A DNA stretch of 33,363 bases from Candidatus Thorarchaeota archaeon (GTDB taxonomy: Archaea > Asgardarchaeota > Thorarchaeia > Thorarchaeales > Thorarchaeaceae), in assembly GCA_048882045.1 (NCBI GenBank), contig JBHLRZ010000005.1, forward strand, positions 119,273-152,635, read 5' to 3'. The stretch's first letter is position 1, and each line of letters starts with the position of its first letter. The notes below the pieces were generated by a model that saw only the letters and a program-made list of their open reading frames with translations, searched no databases and was not told the DNA's origin. The position numbers and the translations under genes were made by a program. Below are positions 2,106 to 19,823 of the stretch, piece by piece.

Positions 2106-2479
2106 TTCAGGCCTGCCTCCTCTGTCAGTTGCATTAGTTGGTTGTTCAAGCTTTGCCAACTTGTCACCATCCTCCGTAGAATTTTGCGTCCCTCTCTTGT
2201 AACATAGTATAGTCTTCTCCTCTTTCCTGATGTATCAGACCATCTTCCTTCAAGGATCCCTCTTTTCTCAAGTCGTCTTAGCAGTGGATATGTAGTACTG
2301 GGTTCGAGCTGAAGTGAATCAAATTCATCTTGCCCGAGCTTCTTCATGATGTCATAACCATAGGACTCACCATCAAGAATTATTGCGAGAATGGCAAGCG
2401 ATATTGCACCACGCCTAATCTCGGTTGACCAACGTTCGTATTCTATCTCAGGTCCTGATTTGCTATCAACATCGGTCAT
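2102..2479 (-). CDS. PadR family transcriptional regulator
   Basis: IRRGAISLAILAII..GESYGYDI...TTYPLLRRLEKRG.L...W....GKRRRLYYVT.EG; likely start ATG 2479 rather than 2551. Confidence 0.92.
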   Translation of the reverse strand: MTDVDSKSGPEIEYERWSTEIRRGAISLAILAIILDGESYGYDIMKKLGQDEFDSLQLEPSTTYPLLRRLEKRGILEGRWSDTSGKRRRLYYVTREGRKILRRMVTSWQSLNNQLMQLTEEAGLK

Positions 2480-2499
2480 TGGCTTGTGAACCCCAGAAT

Positions 2500-2539
2500 T
2501 ACTACGTAGTACGATATAGTATGTGACACGATATATATC
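2500..2539 (-). promoter_or_regulatory. Putative padR promoter (TATA-like 2530-2539) and palindromic operator (2500-2521)
   Basis: Perfect palindrome TACTACGTAGTA (2500-2511) inside an imperfect IR TACTAcgT-N6-AtaTAGTA; GATATATATC with a purine-rich BRE-like run upstream on the minus strand. Confidence 0.55.
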
Positions 2540-2606
2540 TTGTCTTTTCATGTCACCAAATGGCCCCAGATTCCTTAATATGGGCCGATGAGCTACGGCG
2601 CTTGAG

Positions 2607-3008
2607 GTGCTCGTACTGAGTATTATTGATCATATCACTACGCTATTGGATGAGGTCGAAATCAAGTATACACGTGAAGACAATGTCTTACGAATGCACT
2701 GGAAGACAGACCACTTTGAGGACCTAAAGATCAAGATAGTGACAAACAAGGATGAGTCATGGGCTTACATTGTCGCTCCATTCACGAACTTCTATGAGGT
2801 CGAAGAAAGCAAGAGAATGAAGCTAGCTTATGATATGCTAAAAGAGTCTTGGAAGGCTAATGGTGTTAAGTTTGCTATCGACGACGATGATGATATCATT
2901 GTCATTGCTGAAACCAATGACACAGACCTAACTGGTGATGAGATAAGGACACTAGTTGGCCATGTCGTGCATGCATGTGACACCCTCTGGGAAATCTATC
3001 CAGCATAG
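2607..3008 (+). CDS. YbjN / type III secretion chaperone (CesT)-like acidic protein
   Basis: About 130 aa, acidic, with the pattern ..L..ML..W...GVKFAIDDDDDIIV.AE.....LT..E...LV..V; exact start uncertain. Confidence 0.6.
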   Translation: MLVLSIIDHITTLLDEVEIKYTREDNVLRMHWKTDHFEDLKIKIVTNKDESWAYIVAPFTNFYEVEESKRMKLAYDMLKESWKANGVKFAIDDDDDIIVIAETNDTDLTGDEIRTLVGHVVHACDTLWEIYPA

Positions 3009-3089
3009 TCAATCTGGCCCCTATTGGTATCGGACTTGCATTTCATCTACGCGAATCTTCATAAGTTGGATACAGTTGTTGAACTTGTA

Positions 3090-3629
3090 ATGACCGATAA
3101 AAGCCCTGCAGCTTTCCCTCGAGAGAAGAAGGAACAGCTTGTGAACATCTTCTATCCGAAACGCGCTTCATTCATCTTCTTTTATGTATTCGGAGTTGTC
3201 GTGTTCATTGTTGGGCTCTTGTTCAATGTAGCATCCGCTGGTGAATTCATCATTTACAACTACATATCCTGGTATCTCGGACTTGCTGCGATGATCTTTG
3301 GAGTACTCCTTGTAATTTGGGCTGAAAGCAGACGATGGTTCACCCTATACATAATTACTACATGGAATGTACGAGTACGAAAAGGAATATTCTATAGAAA
3401 GACGGAGAGGGTATTCTATGACGAAATCACTGATGTGATCAGCTGTGGTCCCTCGGATGAGCGTCGCGTTGGAATGGGTGATGTTGAGATATTTTCTCAA
3501 GCTGTGGACGATAAACCCGTATTGGTTTTTGATGGAGTTCACAATCCTGATGGAATAAAGGAGATTATCAACAGATTTATCCAAACAACCCCTGATCCGG
3601 CACATTGGAGTCATCTGGACAGAACCTGA
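3090..3629 (+). CDS. Membrane protein with a bacterial PH domain (bPH_2, YdbS/YdbT-like)
   Basis: Two TM helices, then YIIT..NVRVRKGIF.R..ERV.YDEI.DV......R..GMGDVEI.....VL.FDGVHNP..IKE.I; likely start ATG 3090. Confidence 0.8.
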   Translation: MTDKSPAAFPREKKEQLVNIFYPKRASFIFFYVFGVVVFIVGLLFNVASAGEFIIYNYISWYLGLAAMIFGVLLVIWAESRRWFTLYIITTWNVRVRKGIFYRKTERVFYDEITDVISCGPSDERRVGMGDVEIFSQAVDDKPVLVFDGVHNPDGIKEIINRFIQTTPDPAHWSHLDRT

Positions 3630-7803: not shown

Positions 7804-8784
7804 CTATATGTCTGACTCCTCCATGGAATCAGATAGGCTCTCCATCTCAGACATCATTTGAGAGTCCAAAGGCTGGAGTGTTCCAACATGCTGAAGTTGA
7901 ACTTCACTAGCACCGAATTTCTTCGCAATCTTCTGAACTATTGGACTAGTCCATCTGACGATTAGCTCATTCAATACTATTGTGGGTAGGATGAAAGCTA
8001 TGACTATCAATGGTAGTCCTATTGTCCAACCCAGACTAATTAAGATCTGTCCTGGATTTGGATCTACACCATAAATAACAAACTTCTGGAAGAAGTATCG
8101 ATTGAACATTGTAATTGGAAATGCTAGTATTCCAAATCCGCCAATTAGGTTTGAATACCAACGTCCAATTCCTTCTGTATCAGGACATCTCCTTAACTCG
8201 AGGTGCTTTTGTTTTACATGAGAAACAATTCCTGCATCGTTTAGGATCCAAGTAGAGCCAAAGAGGCCTATGCTGATTGTAAGGGCGGCAAGTGCACCGA
8301 ACGTTGTGAGAAGTGGATGTAGTGATGGTACGATCTGTCGAAACTCCGTTGCTGATACTTCGGGAACTGCAAAGAGAAGTCCTTGAAGCAAACTGATGAC
8401 CAGTTCTCCAAGTGATAAGGCAAACAAGGAAGGGACTACTGCTCTCTTCATTATCCTGATCCAATCAAATCCTTGACCTATACGCATCACATCAATGTCA
8501 TAGGTGGTAATTCGAAACACCTTCGCAATTAGTAGCATGAAGAATGCAATTGGTAGAGAGAGGATCAGAAACTCAAATAGAAACACTGGAATGAGGACTA
8601 TAAGTAAGAAGTTAGCATCAAAGGTCACTGTCCCAGCAACAGCATCTACAAGACTATAATTATCCGCTACCTCTAGTATTCCTAAAGAGAGGGATTGGGT
8701 AACACTAAATGTGACAATAATCCCAATAGCTGAGAAGACTCCTGGTATTATGAATCTCTTATAGTCATCTTTCATCTCTAGCAC
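7804..8784 (-). CDS. Hypothetical integral membrane protein (about 6-7 TM)
   Basis: Long ORF with multiple hydrophobic segments; no family recognised. Confidence 0.7.
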   Translation of the reverse strand: MLEMKDDYKRFIIPGVFSAIGIIVTFSVTQSLSLGILEVADNYSLVDAVAGTVTFDANFLLIVLIPVFLFEFLILSLPIAFFMLLIAKVFRITTYDIDVMRIGQGFDWIRIMKRAVVPSLFALSLGELVISLLQGLLFAVPEVSATEFRQIVPSLHPLLTTFGALAALTISIGLFGSTWILNDAGIVSHVKQKHLELRRCPDTEGIGRWYSNLIGGFGILAFPITMFNRYFFQKFVIYGVDPNPGQILISLGWTIGLPLIVIAFILPTIVLNELIVRWTSPIVQKIAKKFGASEVQLQHVGTLQPLDSQMMSEMESLSDSMEESDI

Positions 8785-9883: not shown

Positions 9884-10456
9884 ATGGAACCAGAGAAACT
9901 TGCGATAGTTGGAGTTGTATTGGTTACAGTGACTGTAGGTCTCTTTATAGGAGCGTCATTTCTGACATTCCCAGCCGCAGATAATGGTGGAGATGAACCC
10001 ACACTAACAAAATACACAACAGATCGAGACCTGGCTGAGCTGGAACTTTCCGTTCCTTCCAGTTGGTCGTTCGAAATGTCTGATGGATCAACTTTGGATT
10101 TGAGTGCTCTGCGAGGACAGGTGGTTGTTGTCGATCTGATGGCAACATGGTGCCCAAGTTGTGCTACTCAGAATACGTATCTCGCAGAGATAAATGACAA
10201 CCTAGTTGGAACTGCTATTGTGATATCTCTGACTGTTGACGACAGTGAAACAGCTGCTATGATGGCTGACTACAAATCAACAAAGGCACTGGATTGGCCT
10301 CACGGGGTTGATACAGGCAGTTCATTTGAGAACTATTTCAATGTTCGAAACATACCCACCTTAGTACTCATAGATGCGGATGGTGTATTCCGATATTTGC
10401 ATGTCGGAACCTGGAGTTCAGCCGCAATGACTGATACTATCGCTTCAATTATCTAG
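9884..10456 (+). CDS. Membrane-anchored TlpA/ResA-like thiol:disulfide oxidoreductase
   Basis: N-terminal TM; LRGQVVVVDLMATWCPSC; cis-Pro loop NIPTLVLIDADG. Confidence 0.9.
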   Translation: MEPEKLAIVGVVLVTVTVGLFIGASFLTFPAADNGGDEPTLTKYTTDRDLAELELSVPSSWSFEMSDGSTLDLSALRGQVVVVDLMATWCPSCATQNTYLAEINDNLVGTAIVISLTVDDSETAAMMADYKSTKALDWPHGVDTGSSFENYFNVRNIPTLVLIDADGVFRYLHVGTWSSAAMTDTIASII

Positions 10457-10471
10457 TAGGAGCTGTGTGGG

Positions 10472-11188
10472 GTGCAGGGACTAGTAGAGATAGGTCTACT
10501 CTTGGCTAAGCTAGCGGGGGTTTTCGGATCAGGTCTCTACTTAGCCATGTCACCATGTCTATTTCCTCTACTTCCACTATTCCTGTTGAATAGTTTGAAA
10601 TCAGAGGACGATCGCAAACGAAGTGTTATTGTCACGAGTGTACTTGTTTTAGGAATACTAGGTTCACTTGCTATCTATTTCTCTATTGCTTTGTTTATCA
10701 GTTCCTTCCTGTTCAATTATTACCTTGAAATCCTTGCAATATTGAGTTTGATAATCATCTTTCTAGGGATTGTCACATTATCTACAACTCTGAAGACGAA
10801 ACTTGGAATTTCGAGTCTGAATCTTAGTTCACAGCCCGAAGCACCATCCAATCTCCTTGGTGTCTTCCTTGTTGGCTTTGGATACTCCATGCTCGCAGCT
10901 CCATGTTCCGGCTCGGTCATACTTGGTGTTATAGGAGTCATTGGCCTTGAAACTAATGTTCTAACATTAATCCTGATGTTCATTGCCCTAGCTATCGCAG
11001 TTGCGATTCCATACTTCACAATAGCAGTAGTGACTGGCGAAGCGAGAGTGAGAATGGCATTCTCACTAAGTCAACATGCCAGAAAGGTCGAGATATTAGC
11101 AGGACTGATTCTAATCGTGTTGGGTGTATTCCTTTTTGCGCAAACGCGTTGGTTTGAGTTCATCTTTGGATTTAGAATCTATGTCTAA
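10472..11188 (+). CDS. ccdA: CcdA/DsbD-family transmembrane electron transporter
   Basis: SPCLFPLLP and AAPCSG Cys motifs, about 6 TM, adjacent to TlpA. Confidence 0.88.
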   Translation: MQGLVEIGLLLAKLAGVFGSGLYLAMSPCLFPLLPLFLLNSLKSEDDRKRSVIVTSVLVLGILGSLAIYFSIALFISSFLFNYYLEILAILSLIIIFLGIVTLSTTLKTKLGISSLNLSSQPEAPSNLLGVFLVGFGYSMLAAPCSGSVILGVIGVIGLETNVLTLILMFIALAIAVAIPYFTIAVVTGEARVRMAFSLSQHARKVEILAGLILIVLGVFLFAQTRWFEFIFGFRIYV

Positions 11189-11234
11189 AACTCTCTGTGC
11201 AAAGATGTAAAACTGAGTTTACTAAACGAAGCTC

Positions 11235-13082
11235 ATGCCCTCGCGCAGTTCGATTGATCTTGATGCTTTGATGACACTCCCCAGAATTTCTTTTGTCAAT
11301 GTGTCACCGAACAAGAGGTATGCTGCAATCATGGTGAATAGACTGCAAGAGAATTATGATGTCTTTCTAAAAACCACCTATAGCCCCGGGGATTTGGTGC
11401 CACTCACGAAGACTCCTGAGGTGACAATTATCTACGATTGGGCTCCTGATTCAAAATCAGTCCTTGTCGGAGAGGATATAGCTCGTAATGAACGCATAAC
11501 ACTCTATCGAGTCTACTTGGATAGCCCTCTTGAGATGAATCCAGTCACGCAACTAGAACCTAACTATTATCTCCGCGATGGTCAGTTTGGACCACGGGGA
11601 AACTACATCACATACGCAATGAACTATGATATCGACACAAAACGTGAAACCGAAACATTTCGCATCGTAGTTCATTACCTAGATTCGAATGACCGAGTTG
11701 TTGTTGCAAGACCTGATAAACCCACGTATCCAGAATTGGAAGTGGATCCGCTCAATCGATACATTCTGTATAAGAGGGCTGATGAGGATCCTTCTGGATC
11801 CCAGTGGTGGATTGTTTCTCTTGATGGCAATGAGGACAGGGAGGTTCTCAATTTCGGACCTAAGGCTAAGGTAAATGCTCAATGGACATATGATAGCAAG
11901 ATTCTCTTCGACACTGATACCTACGAAGGTGAGAAGACAGACCATGTGAGTGTCGGACTGTTAGACATTAACTCTGGAAACATAGACTGGTTGTCAATGC
12001 CAAATAATGGAGCAAAATACAGTTATTCGAGTGTTCCAGATCATTCACATCATATCATTGTGGGGGAGACTGTTGAAGCTAGAAGAAGACCATATATCTA
12101 TGACCTCAAGACTGACATATTACATAGTGCTGTAGCCACCTCTGGAAACCTCTCGCCCATAACGAACCTCGAAAATGATGAATGGATTGGTCTATTCTAC
12201 AGTTCGACTTGTCCGCATAACCTTGTGAGGTTCCAGCTCGGTGATAATGAACCTGAAACCTTCACCTTCCTGACAGATATGCTGGGTCATACTAGTATCA
12301 AAGAGGACGACCTGACACCTGCTGAGGATTTCAGGTGGATTTCAGCTGATAATACAATGATACATGGTTGGCTCTATCAACCTGCAAAACCAAATGGCAG
12401 GACAATCGTCTATATACATGGTGGCCCCACTGCTCATTCTGAGGATTCACTTGATATACAGGTCCAGTACTTCTGTTCAATGGGATACACCATTCTTGAT
12501 CCAAACTATCGGGGCTCTACTGGTTACGGAGTGATATTCCGCGATTTGATCAAGAAGGACGGTTGGGGTGGTCTTGACAAAGAGGATGTTCGAACAGGAA
12601 TCGAGACGCTTATTGAAAAGGGATTTTCAATACCTCACAAGATTGGAATCTATGGAACCAGCTATGGGGGATACATGAGTTGGAATGCTATAACTCACTT
12701 CCCAACGAAGGTTGTGGCGGCTGCTGCACCAATCTGTGGCATGACTGACTTGGTAGTCGACTATGAAACCACTAGACCTGATCTAAGACCATACTCGGAG
12801 GAGATGATGGGTGGATCTCCTACTGAAGTTCCTGAAAAGTATCAGGAGAGGTCTCCAATCAATTACGTACAGAATATCAAAGGGAAACTTCTCATTGTGC
12901 AAGGATTGAGAGACCCCAACGTAACGAAAGCCAATGTTGCTGAAGTGGAGAAGATTCTGGAGAAAAACAAGATATCGTACGAAAAGCTTGTATTTGATGA
13001 TGAAGGCCACGGAATACTTCGTGAAAAGAATGTAAAGATTCTACTTCAAAGATTAGCTGAATTCTTTGATTCATCACTATGA
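11235..13082 (+). CDS. S9 family (prolyl oligopeptidase / acylaminoacyl) peptidase
   Basis: N-terminal beta-propeller; HGGP, NYRGSTGYG, GTSYGG (Ser), DPNV (Asp), DEGHG (His). Confidence 0.95.
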   Translation: MPSRSSIDLDALMTLPRISFVNVSPNKRYAAIMVNRLQENYDVFLKTTYSPGDLVPLTKTPEVTIIYDWAPDSKSVLVGEDIARNERITLYRVYLDSPLEMNPVTQLEPNYYLRDGQFGPRGNYITYAMNYDIDTKRETETFRIVVHYLDSNDRVVVARPDKPTYPELEVDPLNRYILYKRADEDPSGSQWWIVSLDGNEDREVLNFGPKAKVNAQWTYDSKILFDTDTYEGEKTDHVSVGLLDINSGNIDWLSMPNNGAKYSYSSVPDHSHHIIVGETVEARRRPYIYDLKTDILHSAVATSGNLSPITNLENDEWIGLFYSSTCPHNLVRFQLGDNEPETFTFLTDMLGHTSIKEDDLTPAEDFRWISADNTMIHGWLYQPAKPNGRTIVYIHGGPTAHSEDSLDIQVQYFCSMGYTILDPNYRGSTGYGVIFRDLIKKDGWGGLDKEDVRTGIETLIEKGFSIPHKIGIYGTSYGGYMSWNAITHFPTKVVAAAAPICGMTDLVVDYETTRPDLRPYSEEMMGGSPTEVPEKYQERSPINYVQNIKGKLLIVQGLRDPNVTKANVAEVEKILEKNKISYEKLVFDDEGHGILREKNVKILLQRLAEFFDSSL

Positions 13083-13832
13083 AAAGAGGTCCTCGGATTC
13101 TTTTCGGAGGATATCTGAAGCTTTTCCGTCACCAGCTTTGAATTCGATGCCCCGTACGAGCACAACAGGAATTCCTTCATTCGCTTGGCCCATGACAAGT
13201 TCTGCTGCTGCTGCAATCTGATCTGCAAGACAAACAAGAGACCCCTTCAGCTCGCGTTCGTATAGGTCCTCTTTTCCTTTGTTGACAACAAAGGGGGACA
13301 TACCTGCAACACCAATAGCAAGGTTCACTGCGCCTTTCCTCCAAGGTCGCCCTTGAGTGTCTGTTACGATGACTGGTACGTTAAAACCCAATTGCTCTGA
13401 TATTGCTTCATGAATCTTATGAGCTGAACTGTCTGGGTCATTTGGTAAAGCCAGGATAGTGTCTAGAGGGGCGTTACTTTCATCGACTCCAGAGAAGTCA
13501 GTTATTATCCTATGTTTTGTCTTTGTGATGAGAATTGGTTTGTCCTTAATTATTGAGACTGATTCTCGAAGTGCCGCTTCAACACGTTTTGGGTCTTCAC
13601 CTGCCTTTTTAGAAATCTGTCTTGCTTTCTCAGATATTTCCAAGCTTGCCAGCTCGTATAGAGAACCTTCTGCAACGGAGATAATTGAATGAGTGATTAC
13701 AAGAATATCTCCTTCAATGAGGTGGACATCATTTTCATGGATAGAAGATAGAGTGAGTTGAGCTATATCGTCACCTACACTAACTGTAGGAAATCTCTTG
13801 ATAGGAATGAGTTCAATTGTTTGTCCTGTCAT
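13077..13832 (-). CDS. cofE: Coenzyme F420-0:L-glutamate ligase
   Basis: GDILVI.H.I.S.AEG, GVDESN, LP.DPD.SA, VIVTDTQGRPWRKG, ADQIAAAAELVMGQANEGIPVVLVRG; single-domain archaeal length. Confidence 0.95.
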   Translation of the reverse strand: MTGQTIELIPIKRFPTVSVGDDIAQLTLSSIHENDVHLIEGDILVITHSIISVAEGSLYELASLEISEKARQISKKAGEDPKRVEAALRESVSIIKDKPILITKTKHRIITDFSGVDESNAPLDTILALPNDPDSSAHKIHEAISEQLGFNVPVIVTDTQGRPWRKGAVNLAIGVAGMSPFVVNKGKEDLYERELKGSLVCLADQIAAAAELVMGQANEGIPVVLVRGIEFKAGDGKASDILRKESEDLFS

Positions 13833-13846
13833 GCTCTTCCCTTGTG

Positions 13847-14479
13847 CTAAGCATCCTCAATCTCTTCTTCTGGAAGCTCCCTAATAGTCTTTGAGGGCTC
13901 ATAAAACTCTCCAAGACCTGCACTGATTTTCAGGTTCTTTGGGATGAGGTCATAGAGGATGAGTCCTCCAATGATGTTTATTGCAGCTTGGACAACATTC
14001 CACGGAACGATTAGCGCTGATGCAATGACAGCACCATTGACATCATAGAGGAACGGGAGTAGTGCAGGCAGTAGTACAATATTCATGAAGTACATACCCA
14101 CCGACCTAAGAACTGTTCCGCTGACCAAATAGACAGACATTCTGACAGGTTTTGATACATCTCTGTGTCTTAATAACCAATAACCAAGAACCATCCCGAC
14201 GATTGTGAACATCTCTGCAAAGCCTTTGAAAACTGCACCAATCGGATTTCTGTAGGCGATTGCGATGAACATCACTATCATCGATACAATCGATGCAGCC
14301 CAACCCAAGCCTATGTAGATCAAGACCAATGGAATTCCAGTCCAGTCGATTGTGAATCTTGGAGCTGGCATGACTAGAATGTCCGTTACTCCAAGCACAG
14401 GAAAAACCTCGAGTGCAACTATGATAGATGTAAATATTGCAAGTATCGCTATGCTCTTTGAATCCGTTCTCATCTGCAT
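13847..14479 (-). CDS. ECF transporter S-component (RibU/PanT-like)
   Basis: About 6 TM; IA.LAIF..I...L; P.P.FTIDWTGIP resembles the RibU loop; C-terminal IVPWNVVQAAIN. Confidence 0.8.
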   Translation of the reverse strand: MQMRTDSKSIAILAIFTSIIVALEVFPVLGVTDILVMPAPRFTIDWTGIPLVLIYIGLGWAASIVSMIVMFIAIAYRNPIGAVFKGFAEMFTIVGMVLGYWLLRHRDVSKPVRMSVYLVSGTVLRSVGMYFMNIVLLPALLPFLYDVNGAVIASALIVPWNVVQAAINIIGGLILYDLIPKNLKISAGLGEFYEPSKTIRELPEEEIEDA

Positions 14480-14632
14480 GGATAACTAGGTCTCCTCTTA
14501 ACACCTCACAAAGAAAGAAGGGTTGGTTTCGCGCTGTGCAAAACCTCGTTAAAAGGTGATTGCATATGCTTGGTTGTATATATTCAGAGAGTATATATCC
14601 TACATTTTCGATTATTTATATTTGGGATTCGT

Positions 14633-16312
14633 ATGATGGGTAGTCAGAGAGCAACTTGTACCGTAATCTTTGTTATACTCGTAATGGTTGGATTGACTCC
14701 ATCACATGTTCCAGTAAAAATCGAAACTATACAAGCGCCTGAGAGTATGGGGTATCTAGCTGAAGATTCACCGATAATTGTATTCGATTATTCTCACGGT
14801 CAGTTTTCTTCGACAGTAGAACCTCTTGACCTCCTTCTCGAAACAGAACTCGAGAATCTGGGTTATACGGTTGTCTGGGCTTGGGGCGGAATTAACTCAG
14901 CAATTCTGAGTAATGCCACTGGTCTTGTAATCGGTTCAATTTGGGAAGAGTCCAATGCATTTCTGCCTGAAGAAATTCTGGCTATTCAGGCATGGTTCCT
15001 ATCAGGTAGTAAGTTTCTTTGGGTGGGGACTGACGATGATTTCTCTGGTCATACCTACATCAATGATAACATGAATCTGATTTTACAGGGCATTGGCTCC
15101 CATGTCTATCCAGAACCAGTGGGGGTTGGTGACCCGATTATGAACTGCAATGCATCATATCGTGTAATTGCAAATGGGACGAGCGAGAACGAATTTGTTG
15201 CTCCAATCGTTGCAAATGTGTCAGGTGTTTTGATGCATAGCCCAACGATGCTCTATGGGAGTGAAAGTCCAACGAATCCTGGTGTTGGTGTGTCTCCTGT
15301 ACCTCTGGAAGATGTTACTATCGATAATGTCTTTCCGCTCCTTTACTACAGTCAATATGCAACTTGCCTTGATCAGGATATAGTTCCCCCATTTGCTCAT
15401 GAAAATGGTGATTCGGGCGAATTTGTGTGCGCAACACTTGAAACAAATCTTGGATTCACGAATAACTGTGTCGCGATTGTTTCCGGGGCGAATCCATATG
15501 GGAGATACCAACCTATGTTCACATCAGACTATTATGGTAAAAGTCTGGAGGGAGATCTCTTTGTCAAACAGGCTATTAATTTCGGAATGTCATTGGCCAG
15601 TCAACTATCAATTATGAGTCCTCCCGATATCATATACGAAGAAGGAGCAGTTGGATATTACATTGCCTGGCAAGCATTCGACTCGAATCCAAAGTTGTAC
15701 AATATTACTTCGGATCATACGCTCATTAGAGAGGGGGCTTGGAATAGTTCATCCGAGATTTTCATCCTTTCTGTCGATGGACTGAGTCAAGGTGCCTACA
15801 ATTTCACACTGACTGTGGAAAATGAAGCTAATGTCACGCTATCGGACGCAGTGTTAGTAACAGTCGTAGAACAGCACCCGCCTGAGATTAACCATCCGGA
15901 GGACATGAATATCTTTGTTGGTGATGATATCAGTCAGATCATGTGGAACTTTTATGATCAGAGTTTACTATACTATAACATCTCTCTTAACAGTGAGGTG
16001 ATTTTGACTGAGTTTTTGTTTTCAGCCCAATTCAAAAGAGTCATCATTAATCTCGCTGACCTTCCTGTGGGAGTCCATAATTATACCATACATGTTATAG
16101 ATAGAGCGTTTCTTGATGTGACTGATACTGTGTTTGTTGAAGTTCTTGATTTGCCTATTTCTACCACTACAACAACTACAGCAACGACAACCGCTACTAA
16201 TACGACTTCTGACGGGGGGTATGATATTATCGGAACAATGACGTTCATAATCTCAGTAGGTTCTTCGATCGTTATCATCGTCATTGCGATTATCATAATC
16301 AGAAGACGGTAG
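14633..16312 (+). CDS. Secreted surface protein: GldG/DUF4350 (GATase-like)-type N-domain, two Ig-like repeats, Thr linker, TM anchor
   Basis: Signal peptide; IIVFDYSHGQ, F.PEEI.AI..WF..G.KFLWVGTDDD; Ig repeats P.I..P.D......I.W...D; poly-Thr; TM + RRR. Likely start ATG 14633. Confidence 0.72.
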   Translation: MMGSQRATCTVIFVILVMVGLTPSHVPVKIETIQAPESMGYLAEDSPIIVFDYSHGQFSSTVEPLDLLLETELENLGYTVVWAWGGINSAILSNATGLVIGSIWEESNAFLPEEILAIQAWFLSGSKFLWVGTDDDFSGHTYINDNMNLILQGIGSHVYPEPVGVGDPIMNCNASYRVIANGTSENEFVAPIVANVSGVLMHSPTMLYGSESPTNPGVGVSPVPLEDVTIDNVFPLLYYSQYATCLDQDIVPPFAHENGDSGEFVCATLETNLGFTNNCVAIVSGANPYGRYQPMFTSDYYGKSLEGDLFVKQAINFGMSLASQLSIMSPPDIIYEEGAVGYYIAWQAFDSNPKLYNITSDHTLIREGAWNSSSEIFILSVDGLSQGAYNFTLTVENEANVTLSDAVLVTVVEQHPPEINHPEDMNIFVGDDISQIMWNFYDQSLLYYNISLNSEVILTEFLFSAQFKRVIINLADLPVGVHNYTIHVIDRAFLDVTDTVFVEVLDLPISTTTTTTATTTATNTTSDGGYDIIGTMTFIISVGSSIVIIVIAIIIIRRR

Positions 16313-16340
16313 TTATTCAACGTGTAGAGAACAAAGAAGT

Positions 16341-16366
16341 AATCCCCGGTGATTAGACCGGGGATT
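16341..16366. terminator. Hairpin downstream of the surface-protein gene
   Basis: AATCCCCGGT-gattag-ACCGGGGATT, a perfect 10-bp stem starting 29 nt after the stop. Confidence 0.55.
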
Positions 16367-16652
16367 TGTGAATCACAGCAAACTAGTGCTCATGATGTAC
16401 TTGTTCGGTATGCATCTTCATCTCTTGTTGAGAGTTGAATTTCTTTCCGCACATCTTACATTCAAATTGATTTGTCTGATTTTCCATAGTAATCATGTTA
16501 ACTATAGTTTATATGTTATTAACTTTTCTATAAAACCTAATAACTTCATAAGTACCTTTATACAGTCTATTTTTCGAAAAATCAGAAAGTGTATGAACGA
16601 AATGAGTTCATAACAGAAAGTATGATAGAATATTCTGAGGTGAGGATGTGCC

Positions 16653-18965
16653 ATGAAGCACGTCTCGATGAAAATGGTACTAGGTATCGTGATTGCGACA
16701 ATATTTCTTGTTGGAGCAATTGCTGCCCCAGTATCAGCAGTTCAGACAAATATCATAATTGAAGAATATAATCAAGCTTGGAGATCAGGTGCAAACAATC
16801 ACACATACATCTATGTTGAACCTGATCCCTTGAGCTTCATTTCTCACAGCTATATGCATGCAAATGAGGACTTGGACTATACTCAATATAGATACAACAG
16901 TGGCGGCTGGACATCCCCAGGTGGTAGTGTGTCAGAAGGAACCAATGCTCCTTTTGACTGGAGTGTGTTCAACAGTCACCCGAATGGTCCTTTTGCTAAT
17001 GATGCTAGGCTTCCAAAGTTCTATGACTTTGAAGCAGCTGATGGATCTGAGTTTGTTGTGAATACAACTCTAGAAACTCGAACATACTCTCTTGCTTTCG
17101 GTCAGCATACTTCAGTGATTGCAGATGCAGGTTCTCTGTATGTTGGCACATTAGGTATTAGTGGACAGGAATTCGTTCACCTAACGATCGATTCCAAACA
17201 GGATGCTGTTTCTTGGACTGTATATGTCTATGATCCAGAAGGTAGACCCTTGGGTTCCTATATTGGATTTGAAGGTGACATCTGGACAATTCCATTCAAA
17301 CCCTCCATAGCTGGAACATACTACGTGTTACTAACAGCTTCGCCATCATCAGGAACTTTTGCATTGTTTGACTTTCTACCTGTCGCTGTATCTGCAACAC
17401 CGATTGCTCTTGGTGACGTAGTTACAGGAGAACTGAAGACCGGAGAAATAGTAATAGATCCTGAAACTGGTAGCTTCGTTCAAGAGGAAAAGGCTCCTGC
17501 CGCATTTACCTATAGGGTCGATTCTCCTACAGATGTTGCCTCAGTGACCTATGCATTCAACTACGGTGGACTCTTTGACACTCAACCTGAGTACATAATG
17601 TTCACCAGTGGTGCCTTTGTCTATGGTACAGATGGCGGCTCTCGTTATGGCTATAGTGTTGGTTCTCCATCAACTGGAGAATACTTCTATCGAGGAGGGC
17701 CATACTATGTTACAGTCATAGGGGGCGACAACACAGAGTATACTTTGTACAACCGTGTCAACAGCTATGGTGATCTCCCTGTGAACCATGAGTTCCAGTT
17801 TGAGAACTACATGGGTGCAACAACTTCACACGCCTACAGACTTGACATTGATGAACCATCAATACTGAGAATGAACTCTACCGCTGCAGGTGGAGACCTT
17901 ACTGTATACCTAGTTGGTGTCTATGATGACGGTTTCCGCGTTTCCAGAACCATATCTTTTGGTGCAAACATGCAATCATCCAGCGACTACTACTTGCCAG
18001 TGGGTGAGTATCTTGTTGAGATGGTTATCGACGCTGGTGTAAACGAATGGGCTGAATTCAACATAGGTCCAATTGTTTCTGAAACACGAACTAACATCGT
18101 AGATGTGGGTGGTTTCTTCTTTGACGCTGAAACATTCCACATGTACAATCTTACTCTCTTCCTAAACAATGAGGACAACGTGACAGTGGATTTGGAGGTT
18201 ACCCTCTATGATGCTGTAGGGTGGGAGCTATACAGTGTTGGAATGACTCTGGCAAACAGATGGGATGGATCTCAGATAGTTCCTCATCCAAGTATATGGG
18301 ATAATGACACCCTAAGTTATGCATATCAAGCATGGTATGAAGGACAGGCATTCTTGTCAATCTGTGCGTACTCTGTCGATAACAATACACAAGGTGCTAC
18401 AAACGGTTACACGGACTATTCTGTTGATCTCACTCTACAGTGGATGAACATGGACGACCAGTATTACGCAGGTATCGAGAGTCTTGACGTTTCAGCCGGA
18501 TCAGCAAGCACAAACATTACACTCCTAACACCTGCTACTCCAAGCGAGTGGTGGGGAGTGAGGTTAAACGCGACTCCTGGTGTTTGGTACAATGTATCAG
18601 TGATGACTGGCGGTTTGAATGATATAGGCAACGGTATCTTCAGTCTCTACGCTGGTTCGGGTCATTGGACCGGATCTGGTGATCTCGCTGACACCACTGT
18701 TGGCTCAGTTTCTCAATATGAATTCCAGTTCGGAGCTATTTCAGACACAATTCAAATAGACTTCTACGCTCAACGAAACCCAGTTGATGGATTCATCTGG
18801 ATTGAGATAACTCCGATGGAGACAAATCAACTCGAGATTCAACCAATAACACCACTTGGACCTGACATCCTCTCTATTCTAGGAAGTGTGGCTATTCCAG
18901 CAATTATTGGTGTAGGAGTGATAGTTGTAGTCTATATAGTGTATGTCAAGAGATTCAAGAAATAG
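16653..18965 (+). CDS. Large secreted beta-rich surface glycoprotein with PPC-like domains and a C-terminal TM anchor
   Basis: GAGGTGA RBS; signal peptide; VYVYDPEG...P.IAGTYYVLL PPC-like motif; TM + KRFKK. Confidence 0.72.
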   Translation: MKHVSMKMVLGIVIATIFLVGAIAAPVSAVQTNIIIEEYNQAWRSGANNHTYIYVEPDPLSFISHSYMHANEDLDYTQYRYNSGGWTSPGGSVSEGTNAPFDWSVFNSHPNGPFANDARLPKFYDFEAADGSEFVVNTTLETRTYSLAFGQHTSVIADAGSLYVGTLGISGQEFVHLTIDSKQDAVSWTVYVYDPEGRPLGSYIGFEGDIWTIPFKPSIAGTYYVLLTASPSSGTFALFDFLPVAVSATPIALGDVVTGELKTGEIVIDPETGSFVQEEKAPAAFTYRVDSPTDVASVTYAFNYGGLFDTQPEYIMFTSGAFVYGTDGGSRYGYSVGSPSTGEYFYRGGPYYVTVIGGDNTEYTLYNRVNSYGDLPVNHEFQFENYMGATTSHAYRLDIDEPSILRMNSTAAGGDLTVYLVGVYDDGFRVSRTISFGANMQSSSDYYLPVGEYLVEMVIDAGVNEWAEFNIGPIVSETRTNIVDVGGFFFDAETFHMYNLTLFLNNEDNVTVDLEVTLYDAVGWELYSVGMTLANRWDGSQIVPHPSIWDNDTLSYAYQAWYEGQAFLSICAYSVDNNTQGATNGYTDYSVDLTLQWMNMDDQYYAGIESLDVSAGSASTNITLLTPATPSEWWGVRLNATPGVWYNVSVMTGGLNDIGNGIFSLYAGSGHWTGSGDLADTTVGSVSQYEFQFGAISDTIQIDFYAQRNPVDGFIWIEITPMETNQLEIQPITPLGPDILSILGSVAIPAIIGVGVIVVVYIVYVKRFKK

Positions 18966-18973
18966 AACCAATT

Positions 18974-19017
18974 ACATCGGTCTTGACATGTTCGAGACCG
19001 ATGTCCCACTCTTTTTA
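18974..19017 (+). terminator. Stem-loop plus T-tract, probable terminator
   Basis: ACATCGGTCTTGA-catgt-TCGAGACCGATGT (13-bp stem, one G-U pair) followed by CTCTTTTT, just after the stop. Confidence 0.65.
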
Positions 19018-19064
19018 CCCATTGATTCATATCCGTTCAATCTGATTAGAACAAGGGAGATTCG

Positions 19065-19823
19065 ATGTCTGAAGACGACCAAGTTCCTTGGTACGCGAAT
19101 GATAAGATGTGGGAACTCATGGAGCCTGTGATGTTCACAGAAGCTCGTATTGCTTACACACCTGACGAGGTTGACGCCATCAAATCATTGTGCAAGATAC
19201 AACCTGATGAAGCAGTTCTCGATCTCTGCTGCGGTATAGGCCGTCATAGTCTAGAGTTTGCACGACGTGGTCACAGGGTCGTTGGTGTGGATAGGACCAA
19301 GCTCTATTTGGAGAAAGCAAGAAGAAAAGCCGCGGAGGAGCATTTGAAAATCGAATTTGTAGAGGATGATATGCGGACATTTTATCGAAGGTCATCATTT
19401 GATATCGCGCTGAGTATGTTCACTTCGTTCTCATACTTTGAAGATCACGAGGAACAGATGCTTGTCTTGAGAAATATCTATTCTTCACTCAGAGCAGGTG
19501 GCCGACTTTTAATGGAATCTGCCGGGAAAGAGATACTGGCTCGGATATTTTTGAGACACAGTTGGTCAGAATGGCCTCACGGATTTATGCTGGAAGAAAG
19601 GGAACCTATCAACGACTGGAGTAAAATGCAGAATACTTGGATCTTCATTGAACGAAATGGGACAACACACAGGTACAATGTCACACATTGGATCTATTCA
19701 GGAGTCGAAATAAGGGAGATGCTGGAGAGTGTTGGATTCACTGATGTCAAGGTGTATGGTGGCCTTGATGGACGTCCATATGATAACGAAGCAGAGCGAC
19801 TAGTAGTAGTTGCCACCAAGTGA
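19065..19823 (+). CDS. Class I SAM-dependent methyltransferase
   Basis: VLDLCCGIGRH motif I, VVGVD, DDMR, FD...SMFTSFSYF, L..GGRLL. Confidence 0.93.
   Translation: MSEDDQVPWYANDKMWELMEPVMFTEARIAYTPDEVDAIKSLCKIQPDEAVLDLCCGIGRHSLEFARRGHRVVGVDRTKLYLEKARRKAAEEHLKIEFVEDDMRTFYRRSSFDIALSMFTSFSYFEDHEEQMLVLRNIYSSLRAGGRLLMESAGKEILARIFLRHSWSEWPHGFMLEEREPINDWSKMQNTWIFIERNGTTHRYNVTHWIYSGVEIREMLESVGFTDVKVYGGLDGRPYDNEAERLVVVATK

Follow-up and report, generated by a model that had tools for sequence, protein, structure and literature searches.

A divergent ECF S-component encoded with cofE in Thorarchaeia is a predicted importer of coenzyme F420

What would a small membrane protein import when its gene lies directly upstream of a gene for the glutamate ligase of coenzyme F420? 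The question is raised by a 33,363-nucleotide stretch of a Candidatus Thorarchaeota archaeon genome (assembly GCA_048882045.1, contig JBHLRZ010000005.1, positions 119,273 to 152,635 of the forward strand), the whole of which we refer to as the window. A preliminary description of this DNA had reported a RibU-like substrate-binding (S) component of an energy-coupling factor (ECF) transporter whose gene stops 14 nt before cofE on the same strand, with no other cof genes in the window, and had proposed uptake of FO (the bare deazaflavin) or F420 species, followed by tail maturation. The two open reading frames (ORFs) lie as described, and encode a 210-aa membrane protein (P0001) and a 251-aa CofE (P0002); that the window holds no further cof genes is borne out both by the list of its ORFs and by Pfam and NCBIfam scans of eight of them (9884-19823). 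With a probability of roughly 0.6, we propose that the S-component imports F420-0 or F420-n, and not FO, and that CofE would then rebuild or extend the glutamate tail. The prediction would add a new specificity to an established class of transporters.

The sequence of P0001 gives little help with its identity. Searches against Pfam (E up to 10) and NCBIfam (E up to 0.01) returned no family match, neither to the curated S-component families (PF12822, PF07155, and those of NCBIfam) nor to the NCBIfam RibU model NF010182, and the sole hit, a 13-residue match to PetM at E 10, was set aside as noise. The AlphaFold2 model, built on a 40-sequence alignment (pLDDT 86, pTM 0.81), is that of a small six-helix membrane protein of the kind expected for an ECF S-component, with long helices at residues 7-25, 48-58, 60-75, 79-103, 110-140, and 147-178 and a beta-hairpin in loop 1. 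All of the 15 best PDB matches (VIA) are ECF or ECF-like S-components (Z 8.9-19.3), and the top Foldseek matches are the same. The highest scores are to Staphylococcus aureus RibU (3P5N; Z 19.3 over 164 aa, root-mean-square deviation 2.4) and Thermotoga maritima RibU (5KBW; Z 19.2), about a dozen other ECF S-components score Z 9-13, and unrelated helical proteins stay below Z 7 in an exhaustive structural comparison. Because the RibU proteins reach Z ~19 and other S-components only 9-13, the label RibU-like is right at the level of the fold. Judged from the model, P0001 represents a divergent, almost Asgard-only branch of S-components that is nearest in shape to the riboflavin binder RibU. A profile search over 1.84 billion representative proteins yielded only 98 matches to the P0001 family, and a word-based search gave 78 homologues, of which all those named by taxon are from Asgard archaea (Thor-, Loki-, Hod-, and Sif-); the more distant relatives of the profile (E 1e-11 to 1e-27) are, among those tested, mostly PF12822 members, and one also matches PF07155. 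Twelve polar residues are invariant or nearly so in the family alignment (D45, W46, Y76, R77, N78, K85, E89, R125, N133, N161, Q164, and N168). The profile matches T. maritima RibU weakly (E 0.37) but across the whole protein, and in this weak alignment the two have in common one Asn in each of transmembrane helices TM5 and TM6 and a D-x3-IP motif that follows loop 1, while R77, K85, E89, and R125 find no counterpart; these charged residues would suit an anionic ligand.

The downstream protein, P0002, is more readily assigned. It matches PF01996 with 227.8 bits (cut-off 25) and, over its full length, the CofE model TIGR01916 with 247.2 bits, above the equivalog cut-off of 180.65; on the FolC2-type model TIGR04132 it scores 75 bits, far under the cut-off of 350. 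These scores mark it as a bona fide CofE, predicted to add gamma-linked glutamate to F420-0 in a GTP-dependent reaction.

The pairing of the two genes is conserved. We sampled 301 genomes of the phylum, and refer to the family to which the window belongs as f1; P0001 homologues, CofD, and CofC were tallied in 77 f1 genomes (76 sampled genomes plus the window's own, G000, which is 93% complete), and CofH, RibH, and EcfT in 81. Members of the P0001 family occur almost exclusively in f1, in 53 of the 76 sampled genomes and thus 54/77 with the window's genome; families f2 and f21 have a few matches. All 56 S loci of f1 were fetched and their neighbors tallied, and at 43 of them the next gene downstream, in the same orientation, is cofE, with spacers of 2-109 nt as estimated from the ends of tblastn alignments; one further locus ends at a contig edge. 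Since this arrangement persists at 43/56 loci despite only 38-54% identity of the f1 S proteins to P0001, chance adjacency can be rejected. Conservation of the linkage and the spread of the orthologues were checks that the preliminary description had named, and both turned out in its favor: the S-cofE order is kept across eight f1 genera (g1, g2, g5, g6, g9, g10, g12, and g15), and close orthologues are restricted to genomes that have retained CofE and enzymes dependent on F420. Weak S-like matches in family f20 (E 1e-11 to 1e-17), in genomes that mostly lack CofE or CofD, were treated as other S-components rather than orthologues.

This archaeon evidently has uses for F420. The window's genome encodes Mtd (364.6 bits), Mer (438.9 bits; cut-off, 348.7) together with two Mer-like paralogues, and one FrhB-family protein; CofC, CofD, CofG, and CofH were not found in it. 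Of the missing cofG and cofH, on which the preliminary description had also sought information, cofH is absent more widely, with CofH in 0/81 f1 genomes versus 124/301 in the phylum. CofD is present in 197 of the 301 phylum genomes but only 9/76 in f1, and CofC occurs in exactly the same nine f1 genomes, adjoining CofD. The S gene and the CofC/CofD pair exclude one another completely: among the 77 f1 genomes, 54 have the first, nine have the second, and none has both. Genera g4, g7, and g8 have CofC/CofD only, and the exclusion also holds inside genera g1, g9, g11, and g14. A comparison within g9 illustrates the contrast at a single locus. In genome G152, which is CofC/CofD-positive (locus L063, C3:137405-140944), the flanks align with those of the S-positive congener G112 (L027) at 82% identity upstream and 71% on the cofE side, and the S gene, ~725 bp, is gone; the cofE gene at this locus of G152 is split by a frameshift, possibly an assembly error. 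A 2021 review of F420 noted that Thorarchaeota have 'several' of the F420 biosynthesis genes (PMC8498797), a remark that the cof gene set of the window's genome fits.

An S-component requires an energizing module, and two are encoded elsewhere in the genome, one on contig C1 (EcfT, 271 aa; EcfA, 274 aa; EcfA', 284 aa) and the other on contig C69 (EcfT, 271 aa, with a fused double-ABC EcfAA' of 481 aa). Modules encoded away from the S gene are the arrangement of group-II ECF transporters, and EcfT homologues are present in 80/81 f1 genomes. An EcfT homologue 2.7 kb from mer on contig C9 was considered as a dedicated energizer and rejected, as it is a CbiM-CbiQ fusion accompanied by CbiO, a metal transporter. 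This cluster (C9:68249-71332; L046 4249-7332, minus strand) comprises the 591-aa fusion, CbiO, and a peroxiredoxin gene, lies 1.6 kb from the bona fide mer gene, and recurs beside mer in other g1 genomes (G137 and G146); it is probably concerned with cobalt or nickel uptake and unrelated to the S-cofE pair.

We therefore have a candidate transport system whose workings can be sketched. As a group-II ECF S-component, P0001 would bind and translocate its substrate after docking on one of the two shared EcfT/EcfAA' modules, and would bring in ready-made F420 from the environment, either as F420-0 or as short or long oligoglutamyl forms. The CofE produced, probably, from the same transcript would add gamma-glutamates, fitting the tail length to Mtd, Mer, the FrhB-type protein, and luciferase-like enzymes, and this glutamylation would also keep F420 from leaving the cell, in the manner of FolT-FolC for folate. 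The choice of F420-0 or F420-n as cargo follows from the genomes themselves, because those with the S gene and without CofC/CofD could not convert FO. Of the uptake first proposed, then, the F420 part gains from the linkage, the absence of cofH and cofG, and the exclusion with CofC/CofD, and the FO part loses ground with the missing CofC/CofD.

The ligase has a family history of its own within these genomes. The window's genome has three CofE paralogues, and a tree of the f1 paralogues resolves three clades (types A, B, and C), of which type C is the S-linked CofE and type B has the highest CofE score (263 bits). Type A leans most to the folate-type model (112.7 bits on TIGR04132) and is just over the cut-off on TIGR01916 (191.5 bits). 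This deeply divergent type, encoded at C14:36099-36878 (L035 7100-7879, minus strand), has one copy in every f1 genome examined and is clustered with two mtrH genes, mtrA, a DUF2114 gene, and a LarC-like nickel-insertion gene; it may act on a substrate other than F420, such as a pterin.

Several observations count against import of F420. The fold does not reveal specificity, and riboflavin is the ligand of the nearest structures; some homologues carry the Joint Genome Institute (JGI) label 'riboflavin transporter FmnP'. Tailed F420 exceeds riboflavin in both size and negative charge. The S gene does not adjoin cofE at 12/56 loci (in g3, g11, g13, g14, g16, and one locus of g2), and type-C CofE also occurs in some CofC/CofD-positive genomes without the S gene, such that this ligase is not tied to the S-component, although this is compatible with an ordinary F420 ligase. 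Import of finished F420 would not explain why the cell keeps two CofE paralogues of F420 type. Neither the S gene nor CofD was found in 14 f1 genomes; most of these are 62-87% complete, but G124 is 97% complete and so a genuine exception. Finally, the chance of zero overlap between the S gene and CofC/CofD (5e-6, uncorrected, with genomes taken as independent) overstates their independence, because the sampled genomes are mutually related metagenome-assembled genomes with 2-9% contamination.

The same observations that trouble the F420 assignment raise the question as to whether P0001 is instead a divergent RibU/FmnP that imports riboflavin or flavin mononucleotide (FMN), or a transporter of flavins and deazaflavins in general that is used mainly for riboflavin, with the proximity of cofE reflecting loose co-regulation. 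We consider this unlikely. It would accord with the two RibU proteins as nearest solved structures, the weak but full-length profile match to T. maritima RibU with its shared motif and Asn residues, the FmnP label, and a more distant Asgard relative that adjoins a flavin reductase. A flavin importer would also be useful, which is a further point against F420 as the cargo: RibH was over the cut-off in 0/81 f1 genomes, with a control search recovering it in 14/14 reference genomes, so f1 appears to be riboflavin-auxotrophic. However, with RibH missing family-wide, all f1 archaea must import flavin, including those without the S gene, and that gene was not found in 23/77 f1 genomes despite the absence of RibH. 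At least nine of these RibH-less genomes, several of them 96-99% complete, are exactly those with CofC/CofD. Moreover, almost all f1 genomes, the nine with CofC/CofD among them, have an S-component that matches PF07155 ('ECF-type riboflavin transporter') at 92-132 bits and could serve riboflavin. In the window's genome it is encoded at C66:7115-7582 (L076 1453-2016), and among solved structures it is closest to the HmpT/pyridoxamine S-component 4HZU (E 1e-15); it is a better candidate than P0001 for a general vitamin importer, with riboflavin or a pyridoxamine-type compound as its possible cargo. Because the distribution of P0001 tracks the lack of CofC/CofD and the PF07155 S-component is near-universal, P0001 is probably not the general riboflavin importer of f1. 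Its failure to match any NCBIfam model, and a tight conserved operon with cofE that has no riboflavin rationale, argue in the same direction.

A second alternative is that the pair salvages folate or a pterin (e.g., of the methanopterin type), with the CofE-like enzyme acting as a FolC2-type trapping ligase. The linkage of FolT with folC, the classic pairing of an ECF folate S-component and folylpolyglutamate synthase, is an apt precedent, and the genome uses tetrahydromethanopterin (H4MPT) enzymes. CofE homologues can indeed be folylpolyglutamate synthases, as CT611 of Chlamydia complements an Escherichia coli folC mutant (PMC1971073). This explanation is nonetheless very improbable, in that the linked CofE scores above the cut-off of the F420 model but below that of the FolC2-type model, the P0001 model is far less like FolT (Z 9-10) than RibU (Z 19), and the paralogue that sits among the MtrH/MtrA genes and leans most to folate is type A, not the linked type C. 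A pterin role would, in addition, leave the exclusion with CofC/CofD unexplained, and there are no folate genes among the eight neighboring ORFs scanned. That the S-component imports FO, with an unrecognized enzyme replacing CofC and CofD, is hardly credible: FO is the closest riboflavin analogue, is excreted by its producers, and has no synthase across f1, but the genomes able to use it (those with CofC/CofD and without CofH) are exactly the ones without the S gene, no CofD-like candidate passes in the window's genome, and CofE requires the phospholactyl carboxylate of F420-0 as its acceptor.

Returning to the locus, the S gene and cofE are probably co-transcribed (Table 1). The spacer between the S-component TAG and the cofE ATG, CACAAGGGAAGAGC, is purine-rich and resembles a ribosome-binding site, with the purine-rich stretch GGGAAGAG within it, and AGGAGA precedes the ATG of the S gene, whose product begins MQMRTDSKS as its homologues do. 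The promoter of the operon is presumed to lie in the noncoding stretch between the S gene and its divergent neighbor. No Rfam family, the FMN riboswitch included, matches positions 12500-15500 at E up to 1.

Table 1. Coordinates of features of the S-cofE locus within the window
Feature	Position	Strand	Basis
'Mem303' multi-pass membrane protein, 326 aa, tentative accessory part	7804..8784	-	Gene order in other genera
cofE, coenzyme F420-0:L-glutamate ligase (P0002), 251 aa, type C	13077..13832	-	ORF, PF01996, TIGR01916
14-nt spacer, S-component TAG to cofE ATG	13833..13846	-	Direct sequence reading
ECF-type S-component gene (P0001), 210 aa, hydrophobic	13847..14479	-	ORF and translation
Noncoding stretch 5' of the S gene, between divergent genes	14480..14569	-	Direct sequence reading
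Divergent gene, 580 aa, no Pfam/NCBIfam match	14570-16312	+	ORF, Pfam/NCBIfam scan
Large ORF, 770 aa, no Pfam/NCBIfam match	16653-18965	+	ORF, Pfam/NCBIfam scan

Gene order in other genera points to a possible third component, the membrane protein that we call Mem303. There its gene comes immediately after the type-C cofE: the order S-CofE-Mem303 was seen by tblastn in L010 (g10) and in L027 and L031 (both g9), and CofE-Mem303 in L056 (g8; 2330-3241) and L063 (g9; 301-1218). In the window the Mem303 gene has the same orientation as cofE but is 4.3 kb farther downstream, beyond a block of plus-strand genes. The family is uncharacterized and Asgard-only, with members of about 300-326 aa; the relatives tested have no Pfam match, and in the Atlas its clusters are all Asgard and lack a Pfam assignment. 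Mem303 may belong to the transport system of the S-cofE pair. The window's genome has three paralogues (that in the window, C34:1442-2284, and C6:19038-19958), and one of them is divergent from a gene on C34 for a weakly PF12822-like S-component (27.9 bits, below the cut-off).

Beyond the Asgard archaea, an S-component relative in Thermoprotei matches the P0001-family profile at E about 1e-19. On two Thermoprotei metagenome contigs (L085 4001-5999 and L091 5001-7156), a RibU-like S gene (PF07155/PF12822) lies 6-28 nt ahead of a gene for an F420-dependent NADP oxidoreductase, with a convergent cofE; here S-component and F420 genes are associated independently of the Thorarchaeial case. The neighbors of other distant relatives are unrelated to F420 and include a thiamine-binding protein, the flavin reductase mentioned above, MtrH/nitroreductases, and, in places, nothing informative. 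Given such mixed contexts, the F420 assignment is limited to the Thorarchaeial clade, and perhaps that of the Thermoprotei cluster, and does not extend to the whole superfamily.

If import of F420 is confirmed, P0001 would be the first identifiable F420 importer. The preliminary description knew of no characterized deazaflavin transporter, and in the literature searched, none is described for F420, deazaflavin, or their precursors; the 2021 review (PMC8498797) contains none of the words uptake, salvage, or scavenging. We would give even odds to the wider picture that follows, in which most f1 Thorarchaeia would be obligate F420 auxotrophs running their H4MPT one-carbon pathway on the cofactor of neighbors (e.g., methanogens), lineages would have switched repeatedly, even within genera, between FO with CofC/CofD and finished F420 with the S-component, and the ~300-aa membrane protein may belong to the system. 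Partial cof sets in Thorarchaeia would then reflect cofactor dependency on other organisms rather than assembly gaps, and F420 would join the cofactors that are cross-fed in anoxic sediments. This bears on metabolic models of these relatives of the ancestors of eukaryotes, which presume a working F420-dependent Wood-Ljungdahl branch, and suggests supplementing cultivation media with F420. The protein is small and expressible, the intrinsic fluorescence of the ligand eases binding measurements, and an F420 importer would be of practical value in F420-dependent biocatalysis where the host does not itself produce the cofactor.

Other Asgard families show partial gene sets of a different kind. CofD is found without CofH in f12 (16/19 versus 0/19 genomes), f27 (10/11 versus 0/11), f16 (5/5 versus 0/5), f3 (4/4 versus 0/4), and f15 (3/4 versus 0/4). 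These families may depend on external FO, and with several showing this pattern, deazaflavin scavenging may be common in the phylum. In f24, CofE is present in 6/7 genomes, without CofD and without a P0001-type S-component.

Among known systems, P0001 most closely resembles RibU (3P5N; 5KBW/5KC0), with which it shares the six-helix S-component fold (Z 19 over 164-166 residues), a similar size, a stand-alone gene relying on a shared EcfAA'T encoded elsewhere, and probably the tricyclic (deaza)flavin class of ligand. It differs in that the structural alignments are only 15-20% identical, in its lack of a match to PF12822, PF07155, and the NCBIfam RibU model, in the four unmatched charged residues, in having cofE as operon partner, and in a phyletic pattern that tracks the absence of CofC/CofD and not riboflavin auxotrophy. 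The logic of the pair is that of FolT-FolC, where the gene for a vitamin-specific S-component accompanies that of a ligase by which the cofactor, once imported, is given its gamma-glutamyl tail, and the CofE and FolC reactions are analogous (PMC1971073); the cofactor differs, however, as does the ligase superfamily (CofE/COG1478 here, Mur-ligase-type FolC there), and FolT is a poor structural match to the P0001 model. P0002 itself is like the CofE of methanogens, a single-domain archaeal type of about 250 aa that is full-length and above the cut-off on TIGR01916, and unlike it in occurring without CofC, CofD, CofG, and CofH, in being one of three paralogues, and in its coupling to a transporter gene. 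The Thermoprotei cluster of S-component, F420 oxidoreductase, and CofE also places a RibU-like S-component among F420 genes, and suggests that deazaflavin transport arose in several archaeal lineages; the Thorarchaeial module is present only where CofC/CofD are missing, and so should act downstream of CofC/CofD.

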